A stretch of 37,724 nt of DNA, taken from Candidatus Limnocylindrus sp. GTDB lineage: Bacteria > Chloroflexota > Limnocylindria > Limnocylindrales > Limnocylindraceae. Both the position numbers and the translations under genes were made by a program. Of this stretch, positions 29,674 through 34,920 are shown piece by piece. Under the pieces are notes generated by a model, which worked only from the letters and a program-made list of their open reading frames with translations, was not told the DNA's origin and ran no database searches. The stretch spans positions 1 through 37,724 of the forward strand of contig JBIIRA010000001.1 in NCBI GenBank assembly GCA_044341795.1, read 5' to 3'. Each line of letters opens with the position of its first letter. The first letter of the stretch is position 1.

Positions 29674-30366
29674 TTAGGCGAGCCCGGCCGGCGCCTCAAG
29701 TCGCGACTTAAGGTCGCCGAGGAAGGCGGCGACCAGCGCACCGTCAACGGCACGATGGTCGGCGGAGAGTGTTGCTGTCAGCATCGTGCGCGCCACCACA
29801 GCGCCGTCGCGCACCACGGCGCGCGACTCGCTGCGCCCCGTCGCCAAGATCGCCACCTGCGGCGGCGTGACGATGGCGGTGAACTGCGTCACCGGGAACG
29901 AACCGAGGTTCGAAAGGGTGAAGGTCTGCTCGGTGAATTCTGCAGGACGTAGCTTGCCGATCTTGGTGCGCGCAATGAGGTCACGCAGCTCGGTGGAGAT
30001 GGTGGCGAGATCTTTTGATGCGCAATCAAGGAGTGCGGGCGCAACCAGGCCGTCGGGAATCGCAATTGCGATGCCGATGTTGATCGGCGTGGAGCGCTCA
30101 AGCGCCTCGCCCTCCCACACCGCGTTGAGTGCGGGGTAGGCGCCAAGCGATTGCGCGAGTGCGCGCACCAACCAGGCGGTGAGGGTGACACGATCGTCAC
30201 CGGTACGGCCAGTGTTTAGGGCTTCGTTGGCGGCAACGACCGCATCCATCTCAATGTCCGTTGAGACATAGAAGTGTGGCGCCTTTGATTTGGATTCCAC
30301 CATGCGACGGCTGATCGCCGTGCGCATTGGCGTGAACTCGACGGGCGTTCGCCCTGGCTTCGGCAT
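29674..30366 (-). CDS. 2-oxoacid dehydrogenase E2 acyltransferase, catalytic domain only
   Basis: The 230-aa protein begins right at the catalytic-domain boundary ('VEFTPMRTAISRRMVESKSKAPHFYVS'). The active-site motif is 'SADHRAVDGALVAAFL' (DHRxxDG). No lipoyl domain or subunit-binding domain is present in this ORF. Confidence 0.8.
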   Translation of the reverse strand: MPKPGRTPVEFTPMRTAISRRMVESKSKAPHFYVSTDIEMDAVVAANEALNTGRTGDDRVTLTAWLVRALAQSLGAYPALNAVWEGEALERSTPINIGIAIAIPDGLVAPALLDCASKDLATISTELRDLIARTKIGKLRPAEFTEQTFTLSNLGSFPVTQFTAIVTPPQVAILATGRSESRAVVRDGAVVARTMLTATLSADHRAVDGALVAAFLGDLKSRLEAPAGLA

Positions 30367-30379
30367 GCGCGAGTGCGGC

Positions 30380-30622
30380 TTACTTGCCGTCTTCGACGTA
30401 GGCGATCACGGCACCGACTGCGACTTCGGCGCCTGCGGCGTGCACGATCTCCACAAGGGTTCCAGCCACAGGGGCTTCGAACTCGACGGTGGCCTTCTCG
30501 GTCTCGAGCTCGCCGATTGGCTGACCTGCAGTCACGGTGTCGCCGACCTTCGCCGTCCAGGCGCCGATCTTGCCGACCTCGCTGTCGTAGCCGAGTCGAG
30601 GCATCTCTACTGGTACGCGCAT
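30380..30622 (-). CDS. Stand-alone lipoyl-attachment domain protein
   Basis: The protein is 80 aa from the ATG at 30622, with AAGGAGGG 6 nt upstream. 'VEMPRLGYDSEVGKIGAWTAKVGDTVTAGQPIGELETEKATVEFEAPVAGTLVEI' is a canonical lipoyl domain with the lipoyl-Lys at K43. It ends with a clean TAA 13 nt before the E2 catalytic ORF, which is in a different frame. Confidence 0.8.
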   Translation of the reverse strand: MRVPVEMPRLGYDSEVGKIGAWTAKVGDTVTAGQPIGELETEKATVEFEAPVAGTLVEIVHAAGAEVAVGAVIAYVEDGK

Positions 30623-30709
30623 CGCTTCCCTCCTTCGGCGGGCCACGGGCGGCTCGCACGCTCTTGCCCCCCCACGAGGGGTGGCGTTGGGGTCAGTGTA
30701 GCCCCGCGC

Positions 30710-32023
30710 CTAGCGCTGTGACTCGAAGGCTGGCTCCGCGGGCATCTCTTCGCCGTGATGGATGCGCGTCGCCGTATTCCAGTCGTCGCCAACGTCGGCG
30801 GTCGCCGCCGCCACGAGGCGGAAGGCCCCCGTCACGATGAAGATGCCGACATAGGTGGGGTAGGCGACGGGGAGCAGGGCCAGCACAACCACGCCCGCCA
30901 GCTGGCCAACGGCGAGCGCCCCCGCGGTGGTGGCACCGTACGCCGACTGCGCGCGAATCGATTCACCAGGAGCGGCGAGTCGGAGCACGCGCTCCTGTGC
31001 TGAGAGCATGCCTGCGGCGAAGCCGACGGTGATGACCACGATGACGACGAGCAGTACCAGCGGTGCATACGGATTCCATGGACCGGCGAACGCCGATGAG
31101 GCCATCCCTACGCCGCGGACTACGAGGGAGATGCGATAGAGGCGACTCGCCGAGCCGCGCTCCAACCAGTTGCCAATAAGGATCGCGCCCACGAGTGCAG
31201 CTGCGGAACCGATCGCGGCCATAAGGATGGCGTACGCCGCATCTTGTTTCAGCACGACGATCGCGTACACCGAGAGATATGGTGCGAATCCGGCGCCAAG
31301 GGCCGAGATGATGTTGGTGCGAAGGAAGCGGCGCACTGGTGTGGAGAGTGGACCAGAGCTTGCGGCGCGACCCGCCGATACCGCGCCAGGTCGTGGCAGC
31401 CCCCGCAGTGCGCGCAAGAAGAAGAGGCTGGCGATCAGGCCGCCAACGAATGCGGGCGCGTAGATGAGGACGCCCCAGTCTTGTTCGCCAACGCGAACGA
31501 GGAGTGCCACGGGCACAAGCAGCACCGAGCCGAGTCCGAATTGAATGGCGAGGGCACGCGGGGCAACGAAGCGACGCTCGCGCTCGGGGAGGATGCGGCC
31601 AAACCAGGTCTGCACGTTGGCCCCGGCGATCGCCTGGGCCGTTGCGCCAACGCCGAATCCGATCGCGATCAGTCCGATGCCAGCGAGGGGTGGAAGGAGG
31701 CCAGCGGCAATCGCCACCACGACGGCGATATAGAGGATGGGGCGCAGCAGTGCAGCCGCGCCGATCAGCAGGGTGAGCCGTCGGAGGTCACCGCCGTTCC
31801 GGCGAAGCGCGGCAGGCATGAGGCCCTGCAAGATGCCGCCGACGAAGGGGAAGAGGCCGACCAGCGTCGCCAGTGCTGGTGATGCACCGAGGGTGGTGAT
31901 GAGCGGGATTGAGAGACTGTCGCCGTTCAGGGCGACGGCGATGGCGTCGGAGATGGCGAGCGTGCGGAAGGCGGCGTAGCGGCCGGTGAGGAAGCGCCGC
32001 CAGTCGGCGATCGCCTTACTCAC
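30710..32023 (-). CDS. 12-TM MFS-like membrane protein, unknown substrate
   Basis: The 437-aa protein has about 12 hydrophobic helices arranged 6+6 around a central basic loop ('RALRGLPRPGAVSAGRAASSGP'). The GTG start overlaps the stop of the upstream 430-aa gene (GTGA). Confidence 0.65.
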   Translation of the reverse strand: MSKAIADWRRFLTGRYAAFRTLAISDAIAVALNGDSLSIPLITTLGASPALATLVGLFPFVGGILQGLMPAALRRNGGDLRRLTLLIGAAALLRPILYIAVVVAIAAGLLPPLAGIGLIAIGFGVGATAQAIAGANVQTWFGRILPERERRFVAPRALAIQFGLGSVLLVPVALLVRVGEQDWGVLIYAPAFVGGLIASLFFLRALRGLPRPGAVSAGRAASSGPLSTPVRRFLRTNIISALGAGFAPYLSVYAIVVLKQDAAYAILMAAIGSAAALVGAILIGNWLERGSASRLYRISLVVRGVGMASSAFAGPWNPYAPLVLLVVIVVITVGFAAGMLSAQERVLRLAAPGESIRAQSAYGATTAGALAVGQLAGVVVLALLPVAYPTYVGIFIVTGAFRLVAAATADVGDDWNTATRIHHGEEMPAEPAFESQR

Positions 32024-33312
32024 CGCCCTTGAGCGGCGGAGGTGCTCGCTCGAACCTGCTCCTCAATTCGATCGATCTCGGTGACGATTGCGGCGCGGAG
32101 GGCGTCGAGTTCGTCGCGCGCCTTCTCGGTCGTGGAGTCGATCGCGGTGAGGGTCTTCTTGATCTCCTTGACCGAGTCCAACCGGCTGCGCAGCGCGTCA
32201 ATGGCGTCTTTCACCGCTGAGAGGTCGGCGCCGCTCCCCTCCGACTTGGCGCGGATCAGCGCCGAGATGCGCGCGAGTCGGTACCCAGCTTCGAGAATTG
32301 CAACATCGGGAGCCTCAGGGTCAACCACGCAGTAAACGCCGTTACGACTCATCTTGAATGGCGAGGCACCCGCTGGTGCCGCCGCTTCGCTGAAGACCAT
32401 GAGGGCGATCTCCGCCTTACGATTCTCCCGCGCCTCAGCGAGCTCCTTCTCGATGGCTGGCCCAGTCATGGCCTTGTCTTTGACTTCAACGACGATGCGC
32501 AGCACCGCGGCGGAGGCATCACGGCCATTGATCGTGATGACCGCGTCGCCCTTCTTTGAATCAGGGATGGAGCCAGCAACGCCGCCCGTCCCTTCAATCT
32601 CGTCGTTGGTGGCGCGGAGTAGTTCTGTGTACTCGGCAATAACGCGCGACTCAAAGTCGGCGCCCTTCGCCGTCCCCTTCTTCCGTTCGCCTTTCGCCGC
32701 CTTCTGCGACGCATCAAGCTCAACGATCTTCAGCAACACATCATCAAAGCGCTTGGCGATCTCGGCGCGAAAGCCGCTCAGTGGCGACGCCTCGCGCGTT
32801 GGGTCCAGCAGGTGGGCAAGCTTGCTGGCATCACCATCAAAGTAAGTGCCAAGAATGGTGTTGAGTTTGCCGAGCGCTGAGTCACGACGATTCTCGTCGA
32901 AGAGGTCCTTCGTAAAGAGGGCGAGCTCACCCTTGTCGCCGAGGAAGCGCTCTAGGGTCGCAGGCAGCACACCACCCTCGTTGGCGAAGGTCTTGCGCAG
33001 GATCTCTTCGACCTCAGCGGTCGCCTTCTTGTTTGATTCGCCGGCGTCGGTGAGCAACTTGTCAAAGGCACGACGCACGTGGTCCACATCAATGGAGCCA
33101 CTCGCGCTCTGCAGCGCCATCAAGCCAACACGCATCGCGCGCTCGACTGTTTCGGCACGATCCTCGGGGGTGCGGCTTTCGAGGAAGCCGGCGAGGGCGC
33201 GATCGACCACCTCGAGGGAGGCGATGCGAATACGGTCGCCAACGATCTCAACCTGCGTCGGCTTATTCGCCGAACTGATCGGCACGATCTCAGGAACGCG
33301 CTCACCGCTCAT
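32020..33312 (-). CDS. Hypothetical protein with PD-(D/E)xK nuclease-like core flanked by helical/coiled-coil regions
   Basis: The 430-aa protein is soluble. Residues ~216-308 read 'KGADFESRVIAEYTELL...KKGDAVITI...LRIVVEVKDK...AEIALMVFSE'. This gives E221, D256 and E276-x-K278 in the order and spacing of restriction-endonuclease-fold cores (Mrr-cat / RmuC / DUF2130-type). The last ~70 aa have heptad-like coiled-coil character. The ATG follows the upstream stop with no gap (TAGATG). Confidence 0.6.
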   Translation of the reverse strand: MSGERVPEIVPISSANKPTQVEIVGDRIRIASLEVVDRALAGFLESRTPEDRAETVERAMRVGLMALQSASGSIDVDHVRRAFDKLLTDAGESNKKATAEVEEILRKTFANEGGVLPATLERFLGDKGELALFTKDLFDENRRDSALGKLNTILGTYFDGDASKLAHLLDPTREASPLSGFRAEIAKRFDDVLLKIVELDASQKAAKGERKKGTAKGADFESRVIAEYTELLRATNDEIEGTGGVAGSIPDSKKGDAVITINGRDASAAVLRIVVEVKDKAMTGPAIEKELAEARENRKAEIALMVFSEAAAPAGASPFKMSRNGVYCVVDPEAPDVAILEAGYRLARISALIRAKSEGSGADLSAVKDAIDALRSRLDSVKEIKKTLTAIDSTTEKARDELDALRAAIVTEIDRIEEQVRASTSAAQGR

Positions 33313-33588
33313 CTATCGGAGGGCAATCAGGCCGCAGCCATCACAGAGGGCCACGATGGCGCGCTTCTCGCGGGCGTAGCCCGCGGTGTGGAGCACGCCA
33401 GGGCAGCCGACCGTGCGGCAGCGCCAGGCCCACGCCTCGTCGCCATCGGCACCGTCATAGGGGAGCGCCTCGGCGCTGAGTTTCTCGGCGAGCCCTTCAC
33501 GGGCGCCCAGCGTCACCGCAATCGCAGCGGCACGCTCTGCCTCACTCTCGCGCTTGTAGGGGTACGACTGTGCGACGTTGGTTGGCAT
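33313..33588 (-). CDS. Small zinc-ribbon protein (hypothetical)
   Basis: The 91-aa protein contains 'CRTVGC...H...(22)...CDGC', a four-ligand Zn-ribbon-like arrangement. There is no Shine-Dalgarno sequence. A TATACT hexamer lies 6 nt upstream of the ATG, which suggests a leaderless mRNA. Third-codon positions are GC-rich in this frame. Confidence 0.55.
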   Translation of the reverse strand: MPTNVAQSYPYKRESEAERAAAIAVTLGAREGLAEKLSAEALPYDGADGDEAWAWRCRTVGCPGVLHTAGYAREKRAIVALCDGCGLIALR

Positions 33589-33594
33589 GGGCTG

Positions 33595-33600
33595 AGTATA
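33595..33600 (-). promoter_or_regulatory. Putative -10 hexamer (TATACT) for a leaderless transcript of the Zn-ribbon gene
   Basis: The minus strand reads TATACT-cagccc-ATG, so the hexamer ends 6 nt before the start codon. That would place the transcription start at or next to the A of the ATG. No Shine-Dalgarno sequence is present. Confidence 0.3.
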
Positions 33601-33624
33601 CCGACCGCCGCAGGCGGGAACCCG

Positions 33625-33630
33625 TATGCT
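33625..33630 (+). promoter_or_regulatory. Putative -10 hexamer (TATGCT) for the divergent MFS gene
   Basis: The plus strand reads TATGCT-gcatgg-GTG, where GTG at 33637 is in frame with the MFS ORF. This is the same 6-nt geometry as on the opposite strand. Confidence 0.25.
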
Positions 33631-33648
33631 GCATGGGTGACTGGATCA

Positions 33649-34920
33649 ATGAAGGCCCTGCTCCTCGGTACCCTGACGTTGCGAACCGCAACGGGGACCA
33701 CGGGCGCGCTGCTGATCGTCTGGAACAAGTACCTGAACTCAACTGGTTCCGTGACCATTACCCCGGTAGACCTTGCAACGATCACGCTTGCCTTCTATGT
33801 GACTGAGCTGATCGGCTCGCCGATCTTCGGCATCATTGCCGACCGCATCGGGCGAAAGCCGGTCATGTTGCTCGGGCCACTCTTCGGCCTCGCGGCGGTG
33901 ATCATGACGCCGTTCTCCATGACGATTCCGCTCCTGATCGGCACGCGACTCCTTGAAGGGGCCTCAACGGCGGCGAGCGTTCCTTCAATTCTTTCGTACG
34001 TGGCAGCGAAGACGAGTCATGACGCCAAACTCCGCGGCCGTGTCGTCACCCTCTTCGAAGTGGCAACACTCGGCGGACTCCTCGTTGCGGGAACCGCGCT
34101 GGCCGGCCCACTCTGGGCGATCTTCGGCCCAGCGGCCTTCGCCGTGAATGGTGCGATCTACGTGATCGCACTGCTCTTCTTCGCGTATGGCGTGAAAGAT
34201 GAACATTCCGCACCCCCTCCCCACACCGAGAATCGCCTGCGCAAGTACGTGAAGCTCTTCAGCCAACGCGGAATCCTGCTCTTTGTCCCTACCTGGGTCT
34301 CGATCAACGCCATCATCGGCGTCTGGGTGCCGCAAGGGCTCAACCTGCTGCTCGGTGACGAGACGGTGAATCTCTCTGGTCAGTTCCTGCTGAGTGGGTT
34401 CCCGTTTGTCGTCGTCACCTCAGCCTTCGCCTTCGTTGCGCTGATCGGCGGCGTCGGGCTCTTCTTCTGGGGGAACCGCTTTGCCAACTTCCGCCGCACC
34501 ACCATGCTTCTGCTCGGCCTGATCGCCTTCATCGTGGCGATGGCCGCCATCTTCATCATCAATCGCCTCTCCGGGAACGAACTGCCGTTGATTGCACTCC
34601 TCTTCGTCGTACTCTGCGGCTCGATGTTCTTCATCGCGGGAGCAACGCCAGCGGCGCTCGGCTTCTTGGCCGATGTCTCCGAGCGGTATCACACGGATCG
34701 CAGCGCAGTGATGGGCCTCTACTCCATCTTCCTCGGCCTCGGCCAGGTGATTGGCGTGAAGCTTGCAGGCGATCTGGCGGCCACCTTTGGAGTCGACGGC
34801 TTGGTCTACGCCACGCTCGGATTCCTCGTGGTGGCGGGCACGTTCCTGCTCATTCTGCGCCGAGTCGAGCACGAAATCCTGCTCCCAAGCGCTCCCGGGC
34901 AACACCGCGCGCACGGCTGA
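33649..34920 (+). CDS. MFS transporter
   Basis: MFS motif A is 'GIIADRIGRKPVMLLG', and the protein has 12 TM helices. The ATG at 33649 ('MKALLLG') is used here, with the in-frame GTG at 33637 as an alternative. The track ORF start at 33079 is antisense to the Zn-ribbon and nuclease-like genes. Confidence 0.8.
   Translation: MKALLLGTLTLRTATGTTGALLIVWNKYLNSTGSVTITPVDLATITLAFYVTELIGSPIFGIIADRIGRKPVMLLGPLFGLAAVIMTPFSMTIPLLIGTRLLEGASTAASVPSILSYVAAKTSHDAKLRGRVVTLFEVATLGGLLVAGTALAGPLWAIFGPAAFAVNGAIYVIALLFFAYGVKDEHSAPPPHTENRLRKYVKLFSQRGILLFVPTWVSINAIIGVWVPQGLNLLLGDETVNLSGQFLLSGFPFVVVTSAFAFVALIGGVGLFFWGNRFANFRRTTMLLLGLIAFIVAMAAIFIINRLSGNELPLIALLFVVLCGSMFFIAGATPAALGFLADVSERYHTDRSAVMGLYSIFLGLGQVIGVKLAGDLAATFGVDGLVYATLGFLVVAGTFLLILRRVEHEILLPSAPGQHRAHG

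Follow-up and report, generated by a model that had tools for sequence, protein, structure and literature searches.

The window analysed here, a stretch of 37,724 nucleotides (nt) from Candidatus Limnocylindrus sp. (contig JBIIRA010000001.1), carries three closely packed minus-strand genes, whose products are 91, 430 and 437 amino acids (aa) long (Table 1). The middle gene, for a predicted nuclease, is our main subject. The TAG stop of the 91-aa gene abuts the ATG of the 430-aa gene at 33313/33312, and the GTGA at 32020-32023 contains the 430-aa stop overlapping the start of the 437-aa gene. An earlier note, made from the letters of this DNA, had suggested that the trio could be a module acting on nucleic acids in defence or repair, built of a PD-(D/E)xK-type nuclease, a small Zn-binding partner and a membrane component, with an ordinary cellular function as an equally possible alternative. 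Its coordinates, junctions and motifs were all recovered when the open reading frames (ORFs) and the sequence were re-read; of its interpretation, the nuclease fold, the mention of DUF2130, the housekeeping flanks and the leaderless first gene are supported below, but the functional module is not.

Pairwise ratios of nonsynonymous to synonymous substitution (dN/dS) against relatives are 0.02-0.31 for the 91-aa protein, 0.03-0.15 for the 430-aa protein and 0.02-0.18 for the 437-aa protein. These values resemble those of the housekeeping neighbours DegV and E2, and all three are therefore real coding genes. The close homologues come from metagenome-assembled genomes of Candidatus Limnocylindrus/Aquidulcis, freshwater Chloroflexota of the class Limnocylindria, and all public copies carry the annotation "hypothetical protein". 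In Limnocylindrus, a freshwater genus with reduced genomes, the 430-aa gene is present in single copy as part of the core and is under purifying selection; wherever a Limnocylindrus-level locus extends far enough, the gene occupies the same position between housekeeping flanks.

Table 1. Features of the trio, its promoter region and one related locus. Positions refer to the window unless a locus is named, and residues to the 430-aa protein. AF2, AlphaFold2; pLDDT, predicted local distance difference test; CDS, coding sequence.
Feature	Position	Strand	Remarks
91-aa gene	33313-33588	minus	ORF, ATG start
430-aa gene	32020-33312	minus	ORF, ATG start
437-aa gene	30710-32023	minus	ORF, GTG start
N-terminal domain, residues 1-212	32677..33312	minus	short beta-hairpin and long helices; AF2 pLDDT ~65-87
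PD-(D/E)xK (Mrr-like) core (predicted), residues 216-357	32242..32667	minus	E221 in alpha1, G255-D256 at beta2, E276-x-K278 in beta3
C-terminal coiled-coil region, residues 365-427	32032..32220	minus	two long AF2 helices, 365-390 and 395-427, low confidence
TATACT, -10-like hexamer	33595-33600	minus	6 nt (cagccc) before the ATG at 33588 of the 91-aa gene
TATGCT, -10-like hexamer	33625-33630	plus	6 nt before the GTG at 33637 of the divergent MFS gene
Divergent Sugar_tr/MFS_1 gene	33625..34920 including box; CDS 33637-34920	plus	Pfam Sugar_tr/MFS_1 assigned in relatives
SMC_N/AAA_23 ATPase, ~127-aa protein without family, nuclease homologue	L091 2115-8303		also in L095, L099, L100, L102, L104, L107, L108, L110, L131, L139, L143

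The 430-aa protein and its family

Modelling and residue conservation support a PD-(D/E)xK restriction-endonuclease core in the 430-aa protein, with the putative catalytic residues in canonical positions. The full-length AF2 model has a pLDDT of 69.8, the core (residues 218-357) scoring 78-90, and folds this region in the order α(218-234)-β(238-241)-β(257-261)-β(271-278)-α(284-297)-β(302-308); G255-D256 precede the strand 257-261 and E276-V-K278 lie within the strand 271-278. A model of the core domain (residues 210-360, 41 diverse sequences) reaches a pLDDT of 92.4 and a predicted template-modelling score of 0.87, with the topology a-b-b-b-a-b-b-b-a and elements, in model numbering, at H4-23, E29-32, E48-52, E62-69, H75-88 and E93-99. 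Across 20 homologues with identities as low as 44%, E221, G255-D256, E276 and K278 never vary. In the 41 diverse sequences, which reach down to ~26% identity, G255, D256, E276 and K278 remain invariant, alongside R298 and other core residues, but E221 does not. The catalytic residues named in the earlier note are thus conserved as regards D256, E276 and K278, and E221 only among the closer homologues.

When the full-length model was submitted to Foldseek, no significant match was returned, the long helices diluting the search. With the core model, the top PDB fold matches are almost all nucleases of the restriction-endonuclease fold, including the DdmD nuclease domain, EcoT38I, PaqCI, Cap4, CinB, McrC, Avs3, NucS, BbvCI and PspGI. 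Among predicted viral structures (BFVD) the core model has six matches at E<1e-3 (1.4e-4 to 8.5e-4; probability 0.96-1.00), four of them with a probability of 1.00 and template-modelling scores (TM-scores) of 0.58-0.67, and one of these matches is a "Restriction endonuclease type IV Mrr domain" protein. The modelled alpha-beta-beta-beta-alpha-beta core and the Mrr-type structural matches agree with the fold that had been proposed from the sequence. Mrr-type or type IV catalytic domains, as predicted for giant viruses, are in fact the best matches of the core (E 1.4e-4 to 1.1e-3, probability ~1.0, TM-score 0.5-0.67) and share with it the a-b-b-b-a-b arrangement and the D...ExK residues. They differ in that sequence identity is 9-17%, no Mrr Pfam match is obtained and the flanking domains are others; the 430-aa protein has neither a methylation-sensing or DNA-recognition domain nor a restriction-modification context. 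Taken at face value, the model predicts a metal-dependent nuclease activity for the 430-aa protein.

The core is flanked on both sides by helical regions. The N-terminal domain carries the conserved motifs LFDExRRDSAxG and FDGDASKL..LLDPTR..SP..FR, and for these ~210 residues no relative was found in Pfam, NCBIfam, PDB sequences or the full-length fold search. The C-terminal coiled-coil region, for which Pfam gave only spurious coiled-coil matches (Med9, NPV_P10), is aligned and conserved in the hhalign comparison described below and probably mediates oligomerisation.

An exhaustive profile search retrieved 2932 cluster representatives at E<1e-3, among which 611 reach E<1e-30, the clusters being counted at 50% identity and the proteins mostly 400-450 aa long. 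Distant members keep a KGxxFE...GDxVVT...RxVxExK core. The most distant branch recovered, that of Baekduia and its relatives (Actinomycetota), passes the gathering score of Pfam DUF2130 with 30.5-33.6 bits, and hhalign joins the Limnocylindria-family alignment to this Baekduia-type branch with a probability of 99.85% (E 1.3e-30, 397 columns), an alignment that spans the N-terminal domain and the C-terminal coiled coil as well as the core. By these sequence comparisons the 430-aa protein is a divergent DUF2130 relative that Pfam leaves unannotated. The earlier note had listed DUF2130 among users of this fold, and the full-length homology to proteins that pass the DUF2130 threshold, together with the fold model, shows both that mention and the fold call to have been right.

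DUF2130 (PF09903; COG4487) is listed among the PD-(D/E)XK families whose function is unknown (PMC3424549). It shares the KGxxFE ... GD ... ExK core with the 430-aa family and likewise has its nuclease core flanked by a long coiled-coil or helical region. However, the Pfam model covers only part of the 430-aa protein, the ~210-residue N-terminal domain with its own motifs lying outside it, and most of the 430-aa family scores below the Pfam threshold: of 20 close family members, only 4 show a DUF2130 match of any kind. Scans with Pfam, NCBIfam and PADLOC assigned none of the three trio proteins to a family above threshold, and a PDB sequence-profile search of the nuclease family returned coiled-coil noise only. 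The 430-aa protein belongs to a large, unnamed and unannotated bacterial family of DUF2130-related PD-(D/E)xK proteins.

Membership in RmuC (PF02646) was considered as well and rejected, no Pfam match being obtained at E<=1. RmuC resembles the 430-aa protein only in overall logic, as a coiled coil fused to PD-(D/E)xK and encoded by a chromosomal, non-mobile gene, and MFS transporters have been noted in RmuC neighbourhoods (PMC3424549). In contrast to RmuC, the 430-aa protein lacks an N-terminal membrane helix and has its coiled coil at the C terminus, so the domain order differs.

Genomic neighbours of the nuclease relatives

Gene neighbourhoods in this work were taken from tblastn and public gene calls, as GC3-based gene calls picked antisense ORFs at 64% GC and were used qualitatively. 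In 27 of the 44 loci from sister Limnocylindrales (L001, L004, L049-L088, L118 and L119), a Ku gene lies downstream of the nuclease homologue on the same strand. Ku is directly adjacent (~70-160 nt) in ~13 of the sister loci, LigD follows in 17, and an S8 peptidase gene lies between the homologue and Ku in 11. Other neighbour clusters are common to at most 8 of the sister loci, which makes Ku by far the most persistent neighbour.

Bacterial nonhomologous end joining (NHEJ) is usually described as a two-protein system of Ku and the multifunctional LigD, and to our knowledge its dedicated end-processing nucleases are poorly defined. The sister homologues lie upstream of Ku, usually with LigD next and on the same strand, which is the position expected of an accessory end-processing nuclease of a Ku-LigD locus. 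Noncanonical PolX exonucleases have been linked to Ku/LigD by such neighbourhoods (PMC9226535). Neither in fold nor in family is the present nuclease related to PolX or the LigD phosphoesterase domain, and its association with Ku was examined in one order. A literature search for uncharacterised nucleases associated with Ku/LigD found no description of the 430-aa family.

A second context appears in the clade of the family member P0338, where a gene for an SMC_N/AAA_23 ATPase (~814 aa) and one for a ~127-aa protein stand directly upstream of the nuclease homologue in at least 11 metagenomic loci (Table 1). The ATPase has weak similarity to LmuB, mad3, Rad50 and PDC-S06. Genes for ARPP-1 (PF20208) and for an HTH-WYL-WCX regulator occur in other loci of the clade, one of which also has RNase T and UvrD-PDDEXK genes close by. 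The order of an SMC_N/AAA_23 ATPase, a small protein and the nuclease homologue recalls Lamassu (LmuB/LmuA) and MADS (mad3). However, PADLOC models, that of LmuA included, match none of the family members tested, the gene order and the small partner differ from those systems, and no SMC-like gene stands next to the trio of the window. The P0338-clade cluster may be an undescribed SMC-type DNA-targeting system.

The recurring theme of these neighbours is DNA ends and breaks (Ku, LigD, SMC- and Rad50-like ATPases), which is compatible with repair or conflict. A role of the nuclease in repair or defence, as suggested in the earlier note, is made plausible by the Ku-LigD and SMC-like contexts of its relatives, and we regard these linkages as the most interesting lead.

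Companion genes and expression in Limnocylindrus

In the 91-aa protein, the pattern C57-x4-C62, H67, C82-x2-C85, which had been noticed from the sequence, is invariant in 13 homologues down to 55% identity. The protein is a probable, lineage-restricted Zn-ribbon: the 36 homologues found are all Limnocylindrus-like, with identities of at least ~53-54%. DUF6510 (PF20120) gives a weak, sub-threshold match to its Cys-rich half (at best 20.5 bits; cut-off 26.4), and a literature search on DUF6510 found no papers. At the other end of the protein, no homologue, not even the 53%-identical one, deviates from the octapeptide NVAQSYPY (residues 4-11), which exceeds most of the protein in conservation. 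It could act as a functional motif, but constraint on the nucleotides themselves, at the 5' end of a leaderless mRNA, could also account for it.

The 437-aa protein has ~12 hydrophobic segments by hydropathy, split by an Arg-rich central loop, as its earlier description as a 6+6 transmembrane protein implied. It looks like a divergent MFS-like transporter with ~6+6 transmembrane segments. Its score against MFS_1 (PF07690) is 18.6 bits and that of its best orthologue 28.8 bits, the latter over profile positions 18-346 of 347 (cut-off 33.4 for both); a PDB phmmer search with the 437-aa protein found no relative.

The distribution of these two proteins was followed with tblastn over 88 loci. Both flank the nuclease gene in every Limnocylindrus-level locus (at least 73% identity) of sufficient length. 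Since these genomes conserve the housekeeping flanks to the same degree, the synteny of the trio is uninformative about function. Neither partner occurs within 5 kb in any of the 44 loci of other Limnocylindrales (42-48% identity), and both were also missing from the remaining non-Limnocylindrus loci that were tested (metagenomes and other phyla). The 437-aa MFS-like gene was accordingly rejected as a family partner of the nuclease, being absent from every non-Limnocylindrus locus tested, and so was a small Zn-binding partner as a general family feature: an upstream small ORF with a Cys motif was found in 1 of 87 non-Limnocylindrus loci, and that one looks spurious. PADLOC-DB v2 models matched neither the 91-aa nor the 430-aa protein, nor the distant family members P0338, P0112, P0176 and P0359; for the 437-aa protein, SngB at E 0.037 was the sole hit. 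The proposed three-gene module thus lacks support on several counts: the Zn-binding and membrane partners are confined to a genus-level Limnocylindrus clade, the trio was not found in the loci tested outside that clade, the Limnocylindrus locus is core and not a variable island, and no PADLOC defence model matches the trio proteins.

The most divergent homologue of the 91-aa protein, P0154 (53% identity; L147 1-2402), does not adjoin any nuclease. It stands between an orthologue of a Sugar_tr-type MFS gene, upstream on the same strand at 48 nt, and an unrelated hydrophobic protein, whose AzlC-like gene overlaps the 3' end of P0154 by 25 nt; a GATACT box lies 7 nt before the GTG start of P0154. 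The MFS protein of L147 is the orthologue of the window's divergent Sugar_tr gene (40.5% identity, E 1e-89), a hint that the gene to which the 91-aa protein is tied may be this MFS gene and not the nuclease gene. This context is one data point and argues against an obligate pair of Zn-ribbon and nuclease.

Tight packing is widespread in the window (GC content 63.7%), where many other same-strand junctions are 4-nt overlaps or gaps of at most 10 nt. A 2026 study reports for Limnocylindraceae a median genome of 1.3 Mbp with 63% GC, short spacers between genes and few sigma factors, base-excision-repair genes having been lost on a large scale (PMC13212565). With dense junctions both in the window and across the lineage, the packing of the trio is the norm and no evidence of functional coupling. 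Within the trio, junction spacing among relatives varies from 0 to ~40 nt (tblastn offsets), and the exact coupling of stop and start is therefore not strictly conserved. The Zn-ribbon and MFS-like proteins are best read as operon neighbours peculiar to this lineage, whose genome is highly compacted; either may be a functional partner of the nuclease, the Zn-ribbon in particular.

The flanks of the trio had been called housekeeping, which Pfam assignments and public gene calls confirm in the window and in relatives. On one side lie the divergent Sugar_tr/MFS gene, DegV, glutamate dehydrogenase and pantoate ligase, and on the other a lipoyl-domain gene, a 2-oxoacid dehydrogenase catalytic-domain gene, PNPOx and a peptide ABC transporter. 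On the latter side, the E2 component of 2-oxoacid dehydrogenase looks split into two minus-strand genes (29674-30366 and 30380-30646), for a 217-231-aa 2-oxoacid_dh catalytic protein and a 74-88-aa Biotin_lipoyl protein; the peripheral-subunit-binding domain is not called in either gene, and the split is kept across Limnocylindrus relatives (L005, L007, L146).

Expression of the trio probably starts at the TATACT hexamer in front of the 91-aa gene. The box TCGGTATACT, followed by 6 nt and the ATG, is essentially invariant in ~37 distinct relatives (71-99% protein identity), while the spacer and the remaining intergenic bases vary around it, and no GGAGG-like or Shine-Dalgarno motif is present in the 6-nt spacer. 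The conserved box and its fixed spacing to the start codon, with no Shine-Dalgarno sequence between, lend support to the leaderless reading put forward earlier, and TATACT is a probable -10 box driving a leaderless mRNA of the 91-aa gene. A consensus scan of 30500-33900 found no full -35/-10 sigma-70 pair. Terminator-like sites in or after the trio were found only at chance level and inside genes; the transcript may therefore run on into the lipoyl/E2 genes, which would be consistent with an operon made by compaction.

The 48-nt intergenic region 33589-33636 holds two back-to-back -10-like boxes, one per strand (Table 1). In relatives of the divergent MFS gene the box reads TATCGT, followed by 7 nt and ATG. 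As the same two-box layout is kept in relatives, both divergent genes are probably leaderless. Public gene calls put the start of the divergent MFS gene either at ATG 33649, giving 423 aa, or farther upstream, giving 437 aa, and this start is therefore uncertain. The conserved pairing of -10 boxes back to back at start codons also suggests that the uncultured Limnocylindrus lineage routinely uses leaderless expression, a point of importance for gene calling.

Competing readings of the locus

The reading we favour, with confidence slightly better than even, is that this core gene encodes a metal-dependent PD-(D/E)xK nuclease for DNA breaks or ends and that a leaderless promoter drives it together with its two lineage-specific neighbours. 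The 430-aa protein would be a metal-dependent nuclease of Mrr-like fold, composed of an N-terminal helical domain, the core and a C-terminal coiled coil. Its substrate, to judge from the neighbours of its relatives, would be chromosomal DNA breaks or ends, met in repair or recombination and not in a mobile defence island. The 91-aa, nuclease and MFS-like genes would be transcribed together from the conserved -10 box, which would start a leaderless mRNA, and the two downstream genes would be translated by termination-reinitiation at the abutting and overlapping junctions. That the gene is kept under strong constraint in a 1.3-Mbp genome with reported base-excision-repair loss points to an indispensable repair activity.

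Several observations pull the other way. The PDB fold matches of the core are not individually significant (best E 0.018, probability 0.90, TM-score 0.47), the DUF2130 match of the window protein itself (16.3 bits, E 0.006, residues 220-405) lies below the gathering score of 26.7, and the nuclease role of any member of the 430-aa family, as of DUF2130, is a prediction. As for DNA ends, Ku and LigD are absent from the window and from within 5 kb of the nuclease gene in the Limnocylindrus-level loci tested, and actinobacterial members stand alone among metabolic or housekeeping genes, with no Ku linkage. The Ku-linked loci group into one large subclade of a neighbour-joining tree, with a few losses, and the basal sister loci are without Ku; the linkage thus belongs to one subclade of a single order, and inherited synteny may explain part of it. 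The SMC-like and WYL contexts fit defence as well as repair. The proposed translational coupling and leaderless start are read from the sequence, and the operon is kept across ~40 Limnocylindrus species-level genomes, which leaves room for a real partnership with the Zn-ribbon.

This last point leads to the possibility of a real three-component module, in which the Zn-ribbon would be a DNA-binding or regulatory adaptor and the 12-transmembrane protein would anchor or sense at the membrane, in defence, abortive infection or membrane-coupled repair. The operon order kept in all Limnocylindrus-level loci, the abutting or overlapping junctions, the purifying selection on all three genes and the single conserved promoter-like element before the first gene all agree with such a module, as does the occurrence of nuclease relatives with SMC-like ATPases resembling LmuB or mad3. 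However, conservation is uninformative where the housekeeping flanks are equally syntenic, and tight packing is genome-wide. Both partners are missing from all 44 sister loci and from the other non-Limnocylindrus loci tested, the one small Cys-motif ORF among the 87 looks spurious, the deepest 91-aa homologue is not beside a nuclease, and a core locus with no PADLOC match is not a variable island; we consider the module improbable. Much the same standing is given to an anti-phage or anti-plasmid effector nuclease family that recruits partners lineage by lineage, the Limnocylindrus copy being domesticated or an orphan remnant. It would account for the P0338-clade gene following an SMC_N/AAA_23 ATPase near ARPP-1, WYL, PLD-helicase and UvrD-PDDEXK genes, and for the defence nucleases DdmD, Cap4, McrC and Avs3 among the best PDB structural neighbours. 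It is nevertheless unlikely, given that no tested family member matches the PADLOC models, that most contexts examined are chromosomal housekeeping or Ku-LigD, and that the Limnocylindrus gene is single-copy, core and strongly constrained in a 1.3-Mbp genome. Least probable of all is an inactive nuclease, in which the endonuclease fold would be degenerate and the coiled-coil protein would have a structural or regulatory role, such as that of a scaffold binding DNA. Helices and coiled coil make up over half of the 430-aa protein, DUF2130 is listed with no known activity and the PDB matches are weak, all of which would suit a scaffold; but D256, E276 and K278 are invariant family-wide, plus G255, R298 and other core residues, and an invariant full catalytic set is the pattern of an active site, not of a degenerate fold. 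If none of these readings holds, the locus comprises three unrelated core genes packed by genome reduction.

A bolder form of the DNA-end reading makes the family a dedicated end-processing factor for double-strand breaks (DSBs): a Ku-LigD accessory in soil Limnocylindrales, coupled to SMC/Rad50-like ATPases in another clade, and a core gene with a lineage-specific Zn-ribbon adaptor in Limnocylindrus. We regard it as tentative and rather unlikely. Limnocylindrus is among the most abundant freshwater Chloroflexota, and if the end-processing role were true, it would have been retained in a genome-minimal lineage that shed much other DNA repair. With members upstream of Ku-LigD in one order and beside SMC-like ATPases elsewhere, the family is a concrete candidate for a DSB-repair accessory nuclease, and these contexts would give the first functional lead for the DUF2130/COG4487 group.

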